64,000 nt of DNA from the UHGV virus genome UHGV-1366603; one strand, given 5' to 3'. Source of the stretch: a virus. A model generated the notes under the pieces. The model was given only the letters and a program-made list of their open reading frames with translations. It was not told the origin of the DNA and made no database searches. Within the stretch, counting starts at the first letter, position 1, and each line of letters opens with the position of its first letter. The position numbers were made by a program, and so were the translations under genes. This document shows, piece after piece, positions 37,587-44,841 of this stretch.

Positions 37587-38466
37587 TGTCAAAGTTTACG
37601 ACGGTAAACTCTCGACGGTAACACTTAATGCGATGCGTCTGGCTACCGCATTAATTACCGGTGCCGATGTGCAATACCCACAGAAGTCCACACTGAATGA
37701 GTTTTATAAGCTCATGCAAACCCCAGTGCCGGACGGTAAAGCACGTCCCCATTTGCAGTACATGGCGATTGGTAACCGTGGCCACATGGTCGACACATCA
37801 GACGTTGTTGCTGATGTTGTTCCTGTAGCTAAAGAACCTATCGCGTCCGGGATGTTTTCACGCGTTCCGTTTGTCCTGCGTACTAAAGACAACGATTTGT
37901 CTGATGAACAGCGTAAGAACTACGCTTTCCGTACTCTGGAAACCATCAACAAACGTGAGTATTGGGCGTACTACTTAAAACGCATTGACATGCGTGCAGT
38001 AAAAACTACCGACTACGACATTAAGCGTGAGAACGGTGTTGAAACTGTAGAAGACTTTGTCTATACGGATACTGAACTGAACCCGGTACCGAAAGTGTTA
38101 CCGGACTACGATTACGACGATGACGGTACCGTTGCAATTCCTGACGGCCGTTATGTGGAATCAGGCGCAGACCTGGTTATTCCGTGGACGGACTTTGACG
38201 TTCAGGAGTACATGAACGTGACCAGCATTATGCGCGGTAGCCCTCGTAGTTCGATTATCTCTGAACTGGCACTGTGCTCTGGTTTAGACCAAGTAACGTC
38301 TGGTGACTCTGCCACAGGTTCGAAGTTCAGCTACACTGAAGCTATCGGTGTACAAGCCCTGTATTACATTTCGATGTTTACTAACCTGGCGCAGACGAAC
38401 GATAAACTGTCACTGACAATCCGTATCGGTCAACCTGCACCGTTCTTCTTAGGGACAGCGAATTAA
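37579..38466 (+). CDS. hypothetical protein (295 aa)
   Basis: GGAGA RBS, 8-nt overlap with upstream gene. Confidence 0.8.
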   Translation: MSNVKVYDGKLSTVTLNAMRLATALITGADVQYPQKSTLNEFYKLMQTPVPDGKARPHLQYMAIGNRGHMVDTSDVVADVVPVAKEPIASGMFSRVPFVLRTKDNDLSDEQRKNYAFRTLETINKREYWAYYLKRIDMRAVKTTDYDIKRENGVETVEDFVYTDTELNPVPKVLPDYDYDDDGTVAIPDGRYVESGADLVIPWTDFDVQEYMNVTSIMRGSPRSSIISELALCSGLDQVTSGDSATGSKFSYTEAIGVQALYYISMFTNLAQTNDKLSLTIRIGQPAPFFLGTAN

Positions 38467-39110
38467 TGTTGATTCCTGAGCCGAGACTTCCCGATAAAAT
38501 GGTCAGGATCGCGGCGATAGACCCCGGTACGAGCCATCTCGGGATGGCGGTGCTGGATTGGGAATATGGCAGCGACCAAGCCGAAGTGGTGTGGGCTGAT
38601 ACCATGCACGTATTAGACCCAACACATCCAAGTGCGTTTGCAGAGTGTGTCGGTAAACGCGACGATCGCTTAGTAAAACTCGAAGCGTGCTACCGTGAGT
38701 TTCTTCGGATTGCGCGTCCGACGTTTGTTGCAACAGAAACGCCGTTTATGCGGCGGGCAAAACTCTCCGCGTATGAGTCTGGCGTAGAGTTACAGCTGAT
38801 GTTAAGACGGGCGTTATGGGACGTGTTTCCAGAGAAAGTCTTACACGGGTTCAATCCGATTATTGTAAAATCATTCGTTGGTGTGGAAGCGAAAGGAACG
38901 GACAAAACAGATATGTTTCGTGCCGTAACGAAGTTGTATCGCGACCACGCGTTGTTTGACATTACAACGTTGGATGAGCACAGTATCGATGCCGTGGCGG
39001 TGGGGAATATCTTTGTCAGGGTAAACCTGTTAAACTTGAATAGTCTCCTACCGCCAAAACAAAAGTCTGCTAAGACAGCAAAACGGCGGAGAAGACGTCG
39101 GAGGAAATAG
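38466..39110 (+). CDS. putative RuvC-like Holliday-junction resolvase/endonuclease with poly-Arg C-terminal tail
   Basis: N-terminal VRIAAIDPGTSHLGMAVLD (RuvC IDPG motif), internal ETPF and DEHSIDAVAVG acidic motifs, C-terminal KRRRRRRRK. Confidence 0.55.
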   Translation: MLIPEPRLPDKMVRIAAIDPGTSHLGMAVLDWEYGSDQAEVVWADTMHVLDPTHPSAFAECVGKRDDRLVKLEACYREFLRIARPTFVATETPFMRRAKLSAYESGVELQLMLRRALWDVFPEKVLHGFNPIIVKSFVGVEAKGTDKTDMFRAVTKLYRDHALFDITTLDEHSIDAVAVGNIFVRVNLLNLNSLLPPKQKSAKTAKRRRRRRRK

Positions 39111-39112
39111 CG

Positions 39113-39691
39113 ATGTCGCAACCAACACAAGACGTGTCAGCCGCAATTCTTGACATTCTTATCCAAGCAGGAAACAGAAAGTTAAGTAAAGAGCAGTCCG
39201 AAGAACTGTCTAAGATTCTCAAAGACAACTTCGGTGACGACGTCTCTGTAGACGTAACGCGGTCGGGTACAAAGATTCTGTCGGAGCTACGCCCAACGCT
39301 TCTTGAGAACATTGGAAAGATGGCGGAAAACTTTCAGCAGCAAGCCACAAACGCTGTAGAGAGTTTAGGTGACGAAGTAAGCAAAGAAACGATGTTGACA
39401 CTGTGGCCAAAACTTGCCGGTGCACAGAAGTTCATTATTGTTCTGCTTGCACTCGCCACTGTGGTCGTGACAGGCTTCTTAGCGTACGACACGCATCAGA
39501 ACTTTCCAAAAGACAGTATGGAAGTGTTATTTGTATCCTTACTTCCGCTGTTCGGATTGGTAGTATTTGCAACGTGGCCAATTAAAACGTTGGCTTACAA
39601 GTCGTTGGAGATTGCTACCAAAGTTGTCGAGAAGAAACTTGAGAAATCAGGTCAGGTCGTCGCGAAGACGGAAACAAAGACAGCGAAATAA
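39113..39691 (+). CDS. membrane protein (192 aa), two predicted TM helices
   Basis: Hydrophobic segments FIIVLLALATVVVTGFLAY and LFVSLLPLFGLVVFATW. Confidence 0.75.
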   Translation: MSQPTQDVSAAILDILIQAGNRKLSKEQSEELSKILKDNFGDDVSVDVTRSGTKILSELRPTLLENIGKMAENFQQQATNAVESLGDEVSKETMLTLWPKLAGAQKFIIVLLALATVVVTGFLAYDTHQNFPKDSMEVLFVSLLPLFGLVVFATWPIKTLAYKSLEIATKVVEKKLEKSGQVVAKTETKTAK

Positions 39692-39693
39692 AA

Positions 39694-39735
39694 CCAACCT
39701 CTACCTTCGGGTAGAGGTTTTCTTCTTTTTATTTT
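39694..39735 (+). terminator. intrinsic terminator (UUCG tetraloop)
   Basis: AACCTCTACC-TTCG-GGTAGAGGTT then T-rich tail. Confidence 0.85.
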
Positions 39736-39779: not shown

Positions 39780-40433
39780 ATGGAACCACTACGTTTAATG
39801 ACCAGAACGCTACTGATTCCTATCTGGGAATTGAAGCTTGCCCCATTGCCTGCCTCTAATGGGGAGGTCATTGATTTTATTAAAGACGAAGAATTCGTGT
39901 TGACGGCTTTCCAGGAGACGCTGCATCGTTATTATAATGCAGTGCCTTTATCTGGCGGATTAGATTGCCCTGGTGTAGAAGGGAGTACGTCTGCGTTAAT
40001 TGCAGAGTATTTAGAACAGAAAGGAATCGGGGTTGGGAAAGGTCGGGTTTATGTGGACGTCGATAAACTGAAGAGTTATCAGATTGAGCTGACGTTTCAG
40101 ATAAGAAAATTACTTACTCGCTACGGTCTTTTCTCGATTAACTGTAAGGTTGATGACGTACGGATGTTAGACCACGGTTTTACCACCGCCCTCAAAACTT
40201 GTCGCGGTAAAAGATTCGTACAATTTGCGTGGTGGGTACCAGTATTGCGTGGTGAGAGAAAAACGGTGGAGGGGTTGTACGGCTGGGCGCTATGGAGCGA
40301 AGTTCCAGTAAATAAACTCGATGCGGTTATTCCAAAGCACCGAAACGTTCCGCTTAGCAGTTTATTTACTTCCGGCGAGAACACTACGTGGGCTGAATTC
40401 GTTAATAACGTTATGTCAATTGGGGAACAATGA
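39780..40433 (+). CDS. hypothetical protein (217 aa)
   Basis: AAGGAGAC RBS; first gene of accessory block. Confidence 0.8.
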   Translation: MEPLRLMTRTLLIPIWELKLAPLPASNGEVIDFIKDEEFVLTAFQETLHRYYNAVPLSGGLDCPGVEGSTSALIAEYLEQKGIGVGKGRVYVDVDKLKSYQIELTFQIRKLLTRYGLFSINCKVDDVRMLDHGFTTALKTCRGKRFVQFAWWVPVLRGERKTVEGLYGWALWSEVPVNKLDAVIPKHRNVPLSSLFTSGENTTWAEFVNNVMSIGEQ

Positions 40434-40909
40434 TGCAGCAATTAGATATTACTGAAGACAAAATCTCCGCTAAATTTCCACAATTACGCGAATACATTAA
40501 GGACTTAAACTCGATACGCGAAACACCTGTTCGTATTACGTTAGCGATAGAAGACGATATTACGCACGGTATTGCGATTTGGGAACCGGGCAATCTTATC
40601 TATCTGGTGGTAGCAGAAGGTTCTCGTCGTTTCGGCGTGGGTTCGTTCTTATTGCAGTACGTTCAGTTGAATTCCGATCGTCAAATGGTGACGTGTCGTG
40701 TCCACCCTTCGAACATTGACGGCCTGTGTTTCTTTTCGAAAAAAGGCTACCAGATTGACCGTTGGTATATCGCCAGCGACTCTCGTCGGTATTTTCGTAT
40801 GACGAACGGTAACGTTGTTTCGTCATACGCCCCGCCGGAAGAAGGATATTTGGTGGATTTTATCGAAAACACGCCCATCTTTCTCTCTGTTGCGGATAAA
40901 ATTTATTAA
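40430..40909 (+). CDS. GNAT-family acetyltransferase (159 aa)
   Basis: GNAT motif A-like LVVAEGSRRFGVGSFLL; ATGA coupling to upstream gene. Confidence 0.6.
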   Translation: MMQQLDITEDKISAKFPQLREYIKDLNSIRETPVRITLAIEDDITHGIAIWEPGNLIYLVVAEGSRRFGVGSFLLQYVQLNSDRQMVTCRVHPSNIDGLCFFSKKGYQIDRWYIASDSRRYFRMTNGNVVSSYAPPEEGYLVDFIENTPIFLSVADKIY

Positions 40910-40925
40910 CCGTTGAGAGTCTAAA

Positions 40926-41402
40926 ATGATACGTGTCGAATATGAGACGCGGTGCTTAGAAGACAATCGAGCAAAAGCATTACGTTGTGTTGAAATCGTC
41001 CCCGAACACGAACTGGATATTCAAGCTGGTAAGGTTCGGGGCGTTCCGGTTAAGATCGTACAACATAGCCATTGTTCGCAATATAAAGAGAAAGCTGTCC
41101 CAGTAGTACGTTCCAGTAAACGAGAAGACTTTTCAGAACTCCGTAAGTGTTTTCAACGACACTACCGCCGGAGTAAATGGAAAGTGTTGGTATTAATGTT
41201 AGTCGACGATTTCATTAAAGACCTGGTTTGGGAAGAAGTGCTTAAAGAGCGTGGTTTTCAACCCAAACCGTTCTCGTATCACTGGGAACGTTTCAAAAAG
41301 AAATACCACGAGTCATTGCGTTGGTCTCCGAACACCCGGAATATGATGCCGCGTTTAGAGTCAATGTCTTGGCTTCGTGTTTATCTCGATGAGGTAAACT
41401 GA
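40926..41402 (+). CDS. hypothetical protein (158 aa)
   Basis: ORF; stop overlaps next start. Confidence 0.7.
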   Translation: MIRVEYETRCLEDNRAKALRCVEIVPEHELDIQAGKVRGVPVKIVQHSHCSQYKEKAVPVVRSSKREDFSELRKCFQRHYRRSKWKVLVLMLVDDFIKDLVWEEVLKERGFQPKPFSYHWERFKKKYHESLRWSPNTRNMMPRLESMSWLRVYLDEVN

Positions 41403-41791
41403 TGAAACGTTTTATTACTCCATTTCTAATGTTACTTTCGTTTTCTGTATTAGCGGATTTTAAACCTTACGATATCAGTCGTTACGAACCTGCTGTTCCT
41501 GGCGATAAACCGGTTGTGTTTAAAGCAGACGACCAACCCGTCACTGCGGTTCAAAACGATGAGTTTGCAGTGGTGAATTACGGCAAAACGGACTTATGCC
41601 CTGCGGGTGGATTTTATCTGGTGAACATCAAACGTCGAACTTATCAGTTTGTTGATCCGGGTAGCTGCTCTGCAATGGTTAAGGTGACGTTAGAAACCGT
41701 ACCTTACACGAATAAAAACATTAATATACAACGTTTAACCTTTTATGCGGGTGATGAAATCACAGCACGTTATCCGTTATACGGGTATTAG
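41402..41791 (+). CDS. secreted/periplasmic protein (129 aa) with N-terminal signal peptide
   Basis: MKRFITPFLMLLSFSVLA signal-like N-terminus; two Cys pairs. Confidence 0.7.
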   Translation: MKRFITPFLMLLSFSVLADFKPYDISRYEPAVPGDKPVVFKADDQPVTAVQNDEFAVVNYGKTDLCPAGGFYLVNIKRRTYQFVDPGSCSAMVKVTLETVPYTNKNINIQRLTFYAGDEITARYPLYGY

Positions 41792-41814
41792 TGATTAGCC
41801 CCCACGGAGTTCGT

Positions 41815-42453
41815 ATGTCTTTTGTAATTGATTTCGACGTTGGCCACAGACAGAACTTACTTAATCTCGTTAGTTATTGTAACAGTGACAGTGTACGGAA
41901 AAAGCTTTCGGCTGAAAAGGTAGACGTTACGCTCGTCGGTGCCCCAACACCGGAAGGACGCTATAAGGTAAAGTTAACGAACCGTAACGACATAAACGAT
42001 GCGGTACTGATTACCTACACAAAGCTTCAACTGAACGACTTCCTTGAGATTCCTGCCAAGTATCTGGATTGGTTTGATTTCGAAAACGGTCAACCTAAGA
42101 ACTACGATACGTGGGCAGCTTCCGCTAAAGTCGCTGTAGAGAAAATGTGCCAAGACCGAGGTATGGTGATATCGCGCGCTTGGGACACCGGTTCACAGTG
42201 TCACATTGAGTTTGACGAGTCTATCGAACGCTATGTGGTTGTTTACGAGTGCGACTCTTTTATTTATAGTGCGAGAAACCGATTCATCTTACCTCTACAC
42301 TTAGGGCAGGTGATTAACGACACGACATTAGACGGTCTTGATTACAATAACGAACTGAACAAGAAACCATTGGCGGATTTGGACGGTGAGTTAGAAGTGT
42401 GGATGGGTCAGGCGTTGGTTGAGACAGTCGTCTTAAGCGGCCTGGAAATGTAG
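41815..42453 (+). CDS. hypothetical protein (212 aa; track gives GTG start 41791)
   Basis: ATG preceded by GGAG RBS. Confidence 0.7.
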   Translation: MSFVIDFDVGHRQNLLNLVSYCNSDSVRKKLSAEKVDVTLVGAPTPEGRYKVKLTNRNDINDAVLITYTKLQLNDFLEIPAKYLDWFDFENGQPKNYDTWAASAKVAVEKMCQDRGMVISRAWDTGSQCHIEFDESIERYVVVYECDSFIYSARNRFILPLHLGQVINDTTLDGLDYNNELNKKPLADLDGELEVWMGQALVETVVLSGLEM

Positions 42454-42465
42454 TAGTAACGGTGG

Positions 42466-42506
42466 GTAGAGAGAGCTTTCGGGCTCTCTCTACTTTTCTT
42501 TTTTTT
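42466..42506 (+). terminator. intrinsic terminator
   Basis: GTAGAGAGAGC-TTTCGG-GCTCTCTCTAC followed by T-run. Confidence 0.9.
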
Positions 42507-43240: not shown

Positions 43241-44374
43241 ATGTCAACGTTAGATAGCGACTTAGAAGTGCTTTGTGACGATTACGACCGACTCGTAGCG
43301 TTAGAATCCATTGGAGTAAAAGATAATTATCCGGCTATCGTTGCTATCCGTAAACGTTGGCTTTTGGATGATGTGGTTGTTGCGTCAGAGTCTTCGGCCA
43401 TGATGCACCGCGCACAGTTTTTGTCAGACACGGAACCTGATAAAGGGATAGGCAAAGCGGCTGCGCGACTCACCGGACGTGCTGTTCGTGGCGTCAGTCG
43501 GGTAGCAGGCCGTGCTGCCAGTGCAGGTGCAAAAGCATCAGCGAACTTTGCAGGTAAACATTCCAAACAGCTTGCTTTACGTTTTGTGGACTTTGCTGAG
43601 GCTGCGGGTAAAGAAGTCATTAAGGAATTAAAAGAAGCGACGTCTAAAGCGACGACCTTAGAGCGCAAACTGCAAAAGTTAAATGCACGTCTAAGTTTAA
43701 TCGGTGACAAAGACACCTTAAAACCGGTTGACTGCGACACGGGAAGCTGGACGACCAAAGTTTGTTTAGAAGACAAACCTAATGTAAAAGCGTGTATTGA
43801 GTTCAGTAAGAACCTGAACGCAATGGATGCGATGGTCAACGATTATACCGTTAAAACGCGTACTATTCTCGGTAAGAGTAAGAAAGTTACTGAGAGTGGT
43901 TTGGAGAGAGTAGGTCGGTCAACGAACTGGGCGATTAAACGTAGTGCAGGGTTGTTCGGTATTATCGATCCGTTTAAAACGGTGAAAGCGTATCCGTGGC
44001 CAGGTAACGTGGTGGTCGTTGAACACGACAACGGTAAGATTGAGTGGGCGATTGCCCGTGATGGTGATTTTGGCCACACAATCAAATCTCTGAACTTACA
44101 CGAAATCGGTTCAGCTCTCGAAGCCGTTGAAAAAATTATCCGTGCTTTACGTCAGCGTGGTACGAAGCGTCGTAGTGTTGGTTATACCGGTATTTACGAT
44201 GAAATTCAGCGAATGAAAAAAGAATTGAAATCGTTAGACGGTCGTGAATTACGTGACGCTACCGTTCGGTATAAAAACGCACTGCGTTTAGAAGATGCGT
44301 TTACTACCTCGTTAGTGCGTGTTGCGGAAGGCTTACTGGAATGGTGCAGGTTGTCGCTGATTGAGGTTAAATAA
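43241..44374 (+). CDS. hypothetical protein (377 aa), Ala/Arg-rich N-terminal region
   Basis: ORF; TAATG coupling to downstream GNAT. Confidence 0.75.
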   Translation: MSTLDSDLEVLCDDYDRLVALESIGVKDNYPAIVAIRKRWLLDDVVVASESSAMMHRAQFLSDTEPDKGIGKAAARLTGRAVRGVSRVAGRAASAGAKASANFAGKHSKQLALRFVDFAEAAGKEVIKELKEATSKATTLERKLQKLNARLSLIGDKDTLKPVDCDTGSWTTKVCLEDKPNVKACIEFSKNLNAMDAMVNDYTVKTRTILGKSKKVTESGLERVGRSTNWAIKRSAGLFGIIDPFKTVKAYPWPGNVVVVEHDNGKIEWAIARDGDFGHTIKSLNLHEIGSALEAVEKIIRALRQRGTKRRSVGYTGIYDEIQRMKKELKSLDGRELRDATVRYKNALRLEDAFTTSLVRVAEGLLEWCRLSLIEVK

Positions 44375-44841
44375 TGCGTATCACTATTATTCTCAAACCC
44401 GACAGTAAATACGGAAAGTTATACGGCGACCAGGTACTCAAACTGCACAACATGTTGTTCGCAGAAGAGAAAGTGCGTATTAGTCAGTTAACTGGACGTG
44501 ACACGTTCAACCCCATCGAACGTTTAGAAGAGATTTGGCCTCAAGATTATCTCTGTGCTTGTGCGGTGGGTGACAACGAACAGCTTCTGGGATTTATGAC
44601 GTTCTCATTGGGTTCTTGCTCAAAAGACACGTTTGTTTACATCGGGAATTACTATGTGATTCCTGAAGCACGCTCTCAAGGGGTAGGGCGTGCGCTTATG
44701 GACAAAGTCCGTGAATACGGAAAGTCTAAAGGTTGTGGTTGGATGAGTCTGGATGTGTTAGACAACAACGTTAAAGCTATCTCCTTGTATGAGAAAATGG
44801 GATTCCGTACCGAATGCAGGGAAATGATAAAGGAAATCTAA
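44374..44841 (+). CDS. GNAT-family N-acetyltransferase (155 aa)
   Basis: Classic GNAT motifs YVIPEARSQGVGRALMDKV and AISLYEKMGF. Confidence 0.8.
   Translation: MRITIILKPDSKYGKLYGDQVLKLHNMLFAEEKVRISQLTGRDTFNPIERLEEIWPQDYLCACAVGDNEQLLGFMTFSLGSCSKDTFVYIGNYYVIPEARSQGVGRALMDKVREYGKSKGCGWMSLDVLDNNVKAISLYEKMGFRTECREMIKEI

Follow-up and report, generated by a model that had tools for sequence, protein, structure and literature searches.

The 64,000-nucleotide stretch of UHGV virus genome UHGV-1366603 that we analyzed (the window) carries, on its plus strand at positions 41402 to 41791, a gene for a 129-residue protein (the target) that we consider very probably exported. Comparison with its relatives points to passage through the Sec pathway, cleavage by signal peptidase I (SPase I) after Ala18, and a beta domain that resides in the periplasm and is probably disulfide bonded, with a homolog that was undetected in virions. 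The overall explanation that we favor, with a fair degree of confidence, is that the target is a non-virion member of an exported family, a remote relative of the Escherichia coli proteins YfjS and YafY, and likely acts on the envelope. An earlier note on this DNA had read the N terminus as a Sec signal peptide on a 129-residue, Cys-containing phage protein, and this proposal is borne out by an MKR n-region, the hydrophobic stretch FITPFLMLLSFSVLA, a V-L-A/D cleavage site (the slash marks the cut), cysteines at positions 66 and 89, and conservation of this architecture among relatives. The gene and its predicted product comprise the following features.

41402 to 41791, plus strand: target coding sequence, 129-residue precursor; homolog of SPN3US gp90 (SPN3US_0090), phiEaH2 gp014, and Kwan gp109; PHROG 5248.
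41402 to 41455, plus strand: predicted Sec/SPase I signal peptide, residues 1 to 18 (MKRFITPFLMLLSFSVLA), cut VLA/DF after Ala18; rule-based and comparative call.
41456 to 41788, plus strand: predicted mature domain, 111 residues, 12.5 kDa, isoelectric point 5.3, short helix and seven beta-strands.
41597 to 41599, plus strand: codon of Cys66, in the loop directly before strand 3; invariant family-wide; predicted disulfide with Cys89.
41666 to 41668, plus strand: codon of Cys89, in the loop directly after strand 4; invariant family-wide.

The open reading frame (ORF) at 41402 to 41791 (plus strand; 129 codons, ATG start, TAG stop) is a real gene. Its stop-to-stop frame opens at 41393, which makes ATG 41402 the earliest possible start, and since the frame is open for only three codons 5' of that ATG, the N terminus of the 129-residue protein is unambiguous. 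Read from the sequence, a Shine-Dalgarno GAGG lies at 41391 to 41394 (plus strand), 7 nucleotides from the start codon. The TGA of the preceding gene (41400 to 41402) shares one base with the target ATG (TGATG), an overlap that suggests translational coupling of the target to the upstream gene. The antisense strand across the target holds nothing longer than a 34-codon ORF, and no paralogs of the target were found inside the 64-kb window. GC content is marginally below that of the neighboring genes, and this closeness gives no sign that the gene was recently acquired. Matches resembling sigma-70 promoters near the target were weak (9 of 12 positions) and, at 13 against a shuffled mean of 6.7, uninformative.

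The signal peptide was called by rule-based criteria together with comparative evidence. Type I signal peptides have a positively charged n-region, an h-region of roughly 7 to 15 or more residues, and small uncharged residues at positions -3 and -1. All of these characteristics of a Sec/SPase I signal peptide are present in the target, including the absence of a lipobox Cys at +1: the n-region MKR (+2) is followed by the 15-residue uncharged h-region and then by V-L-A/D, with small residues at -3 and -1 of the predicted cleavage site, and the sequence continues DFKP. On the Kyte-Doolittle scale, the best 8-residue mean of the h-region is 2.34 and the best 9-residue mean is 2.5. The target contains no lipobox, and its first 65 residues are without Cys; it has no twin-arginine motif, the n-region reading K-R and not R-R-x-F-L-K; and no second hydrophobic segment occurs beyond the signal peptide anywhere in the 129 residues. 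Among the 123 ORFs of at least 70 residues in the six frames of the window, the full signal-peptide architecture was found in one, the target; a crude filter kept two further ORFs, both marginal, with hydrophobic runs of just 9 to 10 residues. The same architecture was kept in all 35 family members examined, though the signal sequences themselves diverge. Ala at -1 (Ala18) is invariant in the phage subfamily alignments, and A-x-A sites without Cys are found in the target and nearly all relatives. Since the architecture is unique in the window and retained in 35 of 35 members, we regard the signal peptide as beyond chance. In the AlphaFold model, residues 1 to 20 are of low confidence and the folded part begins directly after the predicted cleavage site.

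The mature region is more strongly patterned than its small size might suggest, with motifs that are invariant or nearly so across the family: NYG, CPAGG(F/Y)YLVN, YQxxDxGxC, LTF, and a C-terminal RYPLYxY-COOH. The AlphaFold2 model of the target has a mean predicted local distance difference test score (pLDDT) of 85, mostly above 90 in the mature domain, and places a short helix and seven strands, an all-beta domain, after the disordered residues 1 to 20. Cys66 and Cys89 flank a single hairpin (strand 3/strand 4) at its two ends, which makes a disulfide geometrically plausible in the model, and two invariant cysteines fit an oxidized periplasmic protein. Candidates for a conserved polar surface are N59, N75, R78, Q82, D85, and R123. 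The mature domain bears no catalytic signature, no solved structural relative of the AlphaFold model was found, and searches of Pfam, NCBIfam, PADLOC, and PDB sequences with the target protein assigned no family. Likewise, neither the target nor four relatives matched the defense models of PADLOC-DB; a YafY-family protein (P0050) gave a weak match to a WYL model there (E = 0.008). Every phage member at the conserved position of the target (locus A) ends in R-Y-P-L-Y-x-Y-COOH, encoded by codons 41771 to 41788 in the target and forming the last predicted beta-strand. The C-terminal Y-x-F of outer-membrane proteins activates DegS, and the terminal Y-x-Y of locus A proteins resembles it.

A megablast search of the locus against 50,697 phage records returned no match, and the window therefore represents a new species-level relative. 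Judged by its sequence, the window phage is a new SPN3US/phiEaH2-like jumbo phage of the Chimalliviridae, the family in which SPN3US, a phage with flagella as its receptor, is classed (PMC11428620). At the protein level, the target matches 61 phage records at 45 to 66% identity, assigned to phages of Erwinia (34), Salmonella (23), Escherichia (2), Enterobacteria (1), and Proteus (1). Its residues 1 to 127 align with positions 1 to 128 of the 129 in the PHROG 5248 hidden Markov model (E = 9.3e-38). The homolog in SPN3US is SPN3US_0090, or gp90 (YP_009153384), that in phiEaH2 is G173_gp014, and that in Kwan is gp109. Gene order is common to the window, SPN3US, phiEaH2, and Kwan and runs as follows: virion protein, RuvC-like protein, membrane protein, 217-residue protein, acetyltransferase, PHROG 9187, target, PHROG 10571, DprA-like protein, internal head protein, and acetyltransferase. 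The earlier note had placed the gene in an accessory block, and on this point it needs correction, since the gene belongs to a syntenic block that is conserved, among virion genes, in about 61 SPN3US-like jumbo phages.

Counterparts of the adjacent 295-residue virion protein occur in 259 phiKZ-like jumbo phages (with at least 60% identity in 62), and no homolog of the target was detected in phiKZ, PhiPA3, EL, or RAY. By these searches, the target is lineage specific: it is kept throughout the enterobacterial SPN3US supergroup and is lacking in phiKZ-type relatives. Metagenomic homologs share 84 to 88% identity with the target, and more divergent ones (38 to 50%) lie in the same syntenic block. 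A 643-bp contig attributed to Enterobacter quasiroggenkampii carries a deposited 90-residue protein fragment (P0003) that is 93% identical to the target. We read the sequence data as suggesting that the window phage or a close relative infects Enterobacter.

The published virion proteome of SPN3US comprises 83 proteins (Table S4), among which gp90 and gp180 to gp183 are absent (PMC5105663), while gp84, gp91, gp94, and gp95 of the same block are present (PMC5105663). Of these, gp91 is placed in the tail because it is missing from tailless SPN3US particles. The CoreGenes comparison in the same study (Table S1) skips SPN3US gene 90 (PMC5105663), which agrees with the lack of this gene at the corresponding locus in CR5. 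We found no mention of SPN3US gp90 itself in the literature, where matches to "gp90" refer to phiKZ. The proteins of the phiKZ lysis cassette, as described in the paper on it, are unrelated. Lysis proteins aside, our literature search turned up no periplasm-exported proteins of nucleus-forming jumbo phages.

We also asked where relatives of the target occur in bacteria. A profile search of 1.84 billion representative proteins gave 27 matches at E values up to 0.001, of which about 20 are small (108 to 134 residues) and keep the signal peptide, C-P-A-G, the second Cys, and the Y-P-L-Y end; these small secreted relatives score between about 4e-12 and 9e-4. Giant proteins among the matches (DUF7507, YDG, and RTX repeat families) were rejected as partial-profile matches, compositional or repeat artifacts. 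A profile made from the bacterial sequences alone matched the phage profile in hhalign at 99.75% (E = 3e-27). Traceable relatives come from Serratia, Yersinia, a metagenome-assembled genome of the Casimicrobiaceae, and a 3.7-Mb bacterial contig, and the described contexts are all mobile elements. In Serratia sp. DD3 and Yersinia intermedia, the relative lies in a CP4-57-like island with AlpA, YfjJ, EcsC, and DUF3944, directly 3' of a YfjR homolog (38 to 40% identity, E about 1e-48 to 1e-51). In Serratia sp. DD3, a small membrane ORF intervenes, and genes for an antirestriction protein (65% identical to YafX), RadC, and CbeA/CbtA come after. The equivalent slot holds yfjS in E. coli CP4-57 and yafY in CP4-6. 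In Serratia proteamaculans, the relative occupies an integrase-bearing island, two genes 5' of antirestriction, RadC, and CbtA genes, and the gene for a further relative (P0038) is a moron in an integrated prophage, lying next to the terminase genes on the opposite strand. The genes directly after yfjS and yafY, yfjT (L022:15149-15616) and ykfB (L014:7621-8088), also encode clear signal peptides, and this part of CP4-type islands thus encodes several exported proteins.

This shared slot is matched by a remote similarity between the proteins themselves. When a mixed alignment of phage and bacterial sequences was compared with an alignment of YafY and YfjS, hhalign returned 96.5% (E = 1e-9) over 115 columns with both cysteines aligned. 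Without signal peptides the value was 92.7% (E = 4e-7), and a mature-only super-alignment of 29 sequences reached 95.3% (E = 2e-8) against YafY/YfjS, while controls with shuffled columns of the YafY/YfjS comparison never exceeded 2.5%. An AlphaFold model of a YafY-family protein, of moderate confidence (pLDDT 72.8), shows the same order of a helix and seven strands, with two cysteines in equivalent loops. A Foldseek search with this model against BFVD returned small Erwinia jumbo-phage proteins at the top (Kwan proteins of 135 and 126 residues; E values of 1e-3 to 3e-2, template modeling scores of 0.39 to 0.48), and the lengths of these matches equal those of Kwan gp200 to gp203 array paralogs that match the family profiles. 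A tblastn search of phages with a YafY-family protein gave nothing relevant, and the link is therefore invisible at the BLAST level. On these comparisons, we place the target as a predicted soluble, SPase I-type remote relative in a YfjS/YafY-like superfamily and not as a member of Pfam family PF20494.

In some phages, the family has expanded. Kwan carries a tandem array, gp200 to gp203 (L016:11807-13490), of four divergent paralogs, each with a signal peptide and the family Cys motif, which match the family profiles at E values of 1e-10 to 1e-3. The equivalent array in SPN3US is ACQ60_gp086 to gp083 (L023:15784-17493), corresponding to SPN3US_0180 to 0183, again each with a signal peptide. 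SPN3US and Kwan thus each have five family members, the locus A gene and the four-gene array. In the window phage, where the locus A gene is the only member within the window, such an array would lie about 75 kb from the target. By tblastn, a second locus is evident in several other phages, and phages of the CR5/Derbicus/Phobos type have only a divergent copy, at another location. SPN3US ACQ60_gp086 may have a lipobox-like L-A-A-C, and some array paralogs have four cysteines. On contigs of the Derbicus/Phobos type (L011:6437-12384), the divergent paralog P0039 is convergent to a gene for a 730-residue protein, which is followed by a gene for a 2474-residue protein with an SLT domain (tail lysozyme-like). 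A gene for a DUF1471/BhsA-like small stress protein lies a few kilobases from the array in both Kwan (gp191, L016:5682-5903) and SPN3US (ACQ60_gp094, L023:10064-10273); it represents a further envelope protein, host-like and normally exported, that these jumbo phages encode.

In the window, two strong terminator-like hairpins bracket a five-gene unit at 39780 to 42453, of which the target is the fourth gene.

39696 to 39729, plus strand: terminator-like hairpin (39696 to 39719), 10-bp stem and T-run, opening the five-gene unit; it also scores on the minus strand.
39780 to 41402, plus strand: three upstream genes of the unit, tightly packed or overlapping, for a 217-residue protein (PHROG 8034), a GNAT acetyltransferase (PHROG 7861), and a 158-residue protein (PHROG 9187).
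41816 to 42453, plus strand: gene following the target in the unit (PHROG 10571); homologous to gp91, a tail-associated virion protein of SPN3US.
42464 to 42505, plus strand: terminator-like hairpin (42464 to 42495), 14-bp stem and T-run, closing the five-gene unit.

The ORF listing begins the downstream gene at GTG 41791. ATG 41816, which has a GGAG ribosome-binding site, is the likelier start, since residue 9 is where the match to PHROG 10571 starts. Ahead of the unit, positions 38466 to 39110 (plus strand) encode a RuvC-like resolvase (PHROG 159) with a poly-arginine tail, KRRRRRRRK, and positions 39113 to 39691 (plus strand) encode a 192-residue PHROG 8722 protein with two long hydrophobic segments (FIIVLLALATVVVTGFLAY and VLFVSLLPLFGLVVFATWPI). 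The latter is probably an integral membrane protein, encoded just 5' of the terminator that opens the unit. The block is flanked by genes for GNAT acetyltransferases at 40430 to 40909 and 44374 to 44841 (plus strand). For the second of these, the SPN3US homolog gp95 (17.6 kDa) is found in purified virions, an unusual place for an acetyltransferase.

In the role that we propose, the precursor would be made in the cytoplasm and passed through SecYEG by way of its N-terminal signal peptide, signal peptidase I would cut after Ala18, and the 111-residue all-beta domain would fold in the periplasm, where the Cys66-Cys89 disulfide would clamp the base of the strand 3/strand 4 hairpin. The mature protein could then bind a host envelope component, so that the infected cell's envelope is protected or conditioned by superinfection exclusion or by masking of a receptor. 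We offer this protective binding role tentatively, by analogy; we favor it because the protein combines the lack of a catalytic motif with a compact beta domain bearing conserved polar surface candidates and with relatives that are prophage or island cargo. Exported proteins carried as cargo by prophages and islands typically have the envelope as their site of action, and the mobile-element context of the relatives makes exclusion, or the inhibition of envelope enzymes, somewhat more plausible. Several points weigh against our account. Export, the cleavage site, and the disulfide are all predicted from sequence. Sequence and structure searches found no similarity to a known exclusion protein, lysozyme inhibitor, or defense or antidefense family, and the gene lies among virion and DNA-metabolism genes, not near lysis or obvious host-interaction genes. 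With regard to YfjS and YafY, a profile built from phage sequences only reaches them at just 1 to 5% in hhalign, and the link therefore depends on bridging sequences. The target also gives no match to PF20494 (gathering score, 27 bits), for which 1 of 16 family members gives a weak match (E = 0.044, 14.3 bits), and absence of the YfjS/YafY lipobox from the target is a further point against membership in that family.

Alternatively, the N terminus may stay uncleaved, as a signal anchor or a releasable signal-arrest-release (SAR) segment, and tether the beta domain at the periplasmic face of the inner membrane, mimicking YfjS/YafY or the T4 antiholin RI. YfjS and YafY are anchored in that membrane, the h-region of the target is moderately hydrophobic and has Pro and Ser, and some relatives have uncharged N-terminal stretches of 20 to 24 residues. 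However, 15 residues are too few for the h-region to form a stable transmembrane helix, every member has a canonical small-x-small site after it (with Ala at -1 invariant, as noted, in the phage subfamily), the all-beta domain is unlike the helical RI, and no holin, endolysin, or spanin gene adjoins the target, all of which leads us to regard a tethered form as unlikely. Nor does the target resemble a spanin or RI in other respects, having no lipobox and acetyltransferase, virion, and DprA-like genes as neighbors. A structural or assembly protein with an incidentally hydrophobic N terminus might be expected from a gene that lies between virion genes and upstream of one whose homolog, gp91, is tail associated. 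Yet gp90 is not among the 83 particle proteins of SPN3US (PMC5105663), conservation of the A-x-A site and the Cys pair is difficult to account for in a cytoplasmic assembly factor, and bacterial relatives are found in non-phage islands; we consider a structural role very improbable.

Other alternatives accept export and differ in what the protein does in the periplasm. It might inhibit peptidoglycan hydrolases, as do Ivy, MliC/PliC, PliG, or T4 Sp, and thereby counteract the tail lysozyme of a superinfecting phage or regulate the muralytic enzymes of the phage itself. Like several inhibitor families, the target is predicted to be small, periplasmic, disulfide bonded, and beta rich; the paralog of Derbicus/Phobos-type phages lies near the gene for the 2474-residue SLT-domain tail protein; and two relatives show faint Lipocalin_4 matches (E about 0.025). 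The earlier note had pointed to lysozyme-inhibitor families for structural comparison, and comparison by structure and by sequence gave no match, with no similarity in sequence or fold between the target and Ivy, MliC/PliC, PliG, or PliI. We see only a slim chance that the target is such an inhibitor. It is also conceivable, and in our view improbable, that the target manipulates Cpx or sigma-E envelope-stress signaling from the periplasm and does not block a receptor. The phage subfamily always ends in Y-x-Y-COOH, resembling the DegS-activating Y-x-F; on the other hand, these C-terminal residues form the last predicted beta-strand and may not be exposed. Overproduction of YafY, an inner-membrane lipoprotein, activates Cpx, as does that of just one other E. 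coli lipoprotein (PMC6538781), but that effect was obtained by overproducing an anchored protein, deletion of yafY had no phenotype in the reported assays (PMC6538781), and the homology of YafY to the phage protein is remote. An extended version of this idea, which we regard as a long shot, is that a battery of YafY-like exported proteins in SPN3US-like phages, one conserved and four in an array, acts from the periplasm on Cpx and/or DegS-sigma-E sensing and brings about exclusion and progeny protection by signaling and not by receptor blocking. If this were so, activation of these pathways would shut down flagella, the receptor of SPN3US, and remodel the envelope, and a first function would be in hand for the cryptic-prophage lipoproteins YfjS and YafY.

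The gene itself already has many database entries, under the label of hypothetical protein (PHROG 5248). What appear to be new are the comparative case for export, the five-member exported paralog family in SPN3US-type chimalliviruses, and the distant tie to YfjS/YafY and the yfjS slot. Work on nucleus-forming jumbo phages has dealt almost wholly with events in the cytoplasm, namely, the nuclear shell, protein import, and RNA polymerases. If the export predictions are right, an entire clade of enterobacterial phages maintains one or more small exported proteins (five in SPN3US and in Kwan), and the family points to an unexplored interface between phage and envelope that could involve exclusion, receptor masking, stress signaling, or lysis control. 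Should the function be routine exclusion, the result would be a useful annotation and no surprise. Since an amber-mutant genetic system exists for SPN3US (PMC5105663), the role is directly testable.

Among known systems, the nearest counterparts of the target are SPN3US gp90, phiEaH2 gp014, and Kwan gp109, which are like it in length, signal peptide, Cys pair, motifs, and syntenic position and are annotated only as hypothetical proteins. Envelope exclusion proteins of phages and prophages, such as T4 Imm and Sp, T5 Llp, Cor of phi80 and N15, and P22 SieA, are small, non-virion, and often encoded as morons; signal peptides, lipoboxes, or transmembrane segments direct them to the envelope. We detected no similarity in sequence or fold between these proteins and the target, and the likeness is one of kind and not of family; P0038 is likewise a prophage moron. 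The periplasmic lysozyme inhibitors Ivy, MliC/PliC, PliG, and PliI resemble the target in being small, periplasmic, beta rich, and often disulfide bonded. YfjS and YafY differ from the target in carrying a lipobox (LFL(I/S)AC-DD; L-x-A-C-D), with Cys at +1 and at +2 the Asp that serves for retention in the inner membrane, and in being lipid anchored to the inner membrane, whereas the target has an SPase I site and should be soluble, and pairwise identity is only about 10 to 20%. Like the target, however, they are small exported proteins of mobile elements, with a helix and seven strands predicted and two cysteines in equivalent loops, and they share with it the core G-C-x-x-G-x-Y-Y-L-V-(N/D)...C. 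Bacterial relatives of the target occupy the yfjS slot downstream of yfjR, just as YfjS does. The link thus ties these phage genes to an uncharacterized slot of CP4-type islands, which are present in most E. coli, and a function established in either system would therefore inform the other.

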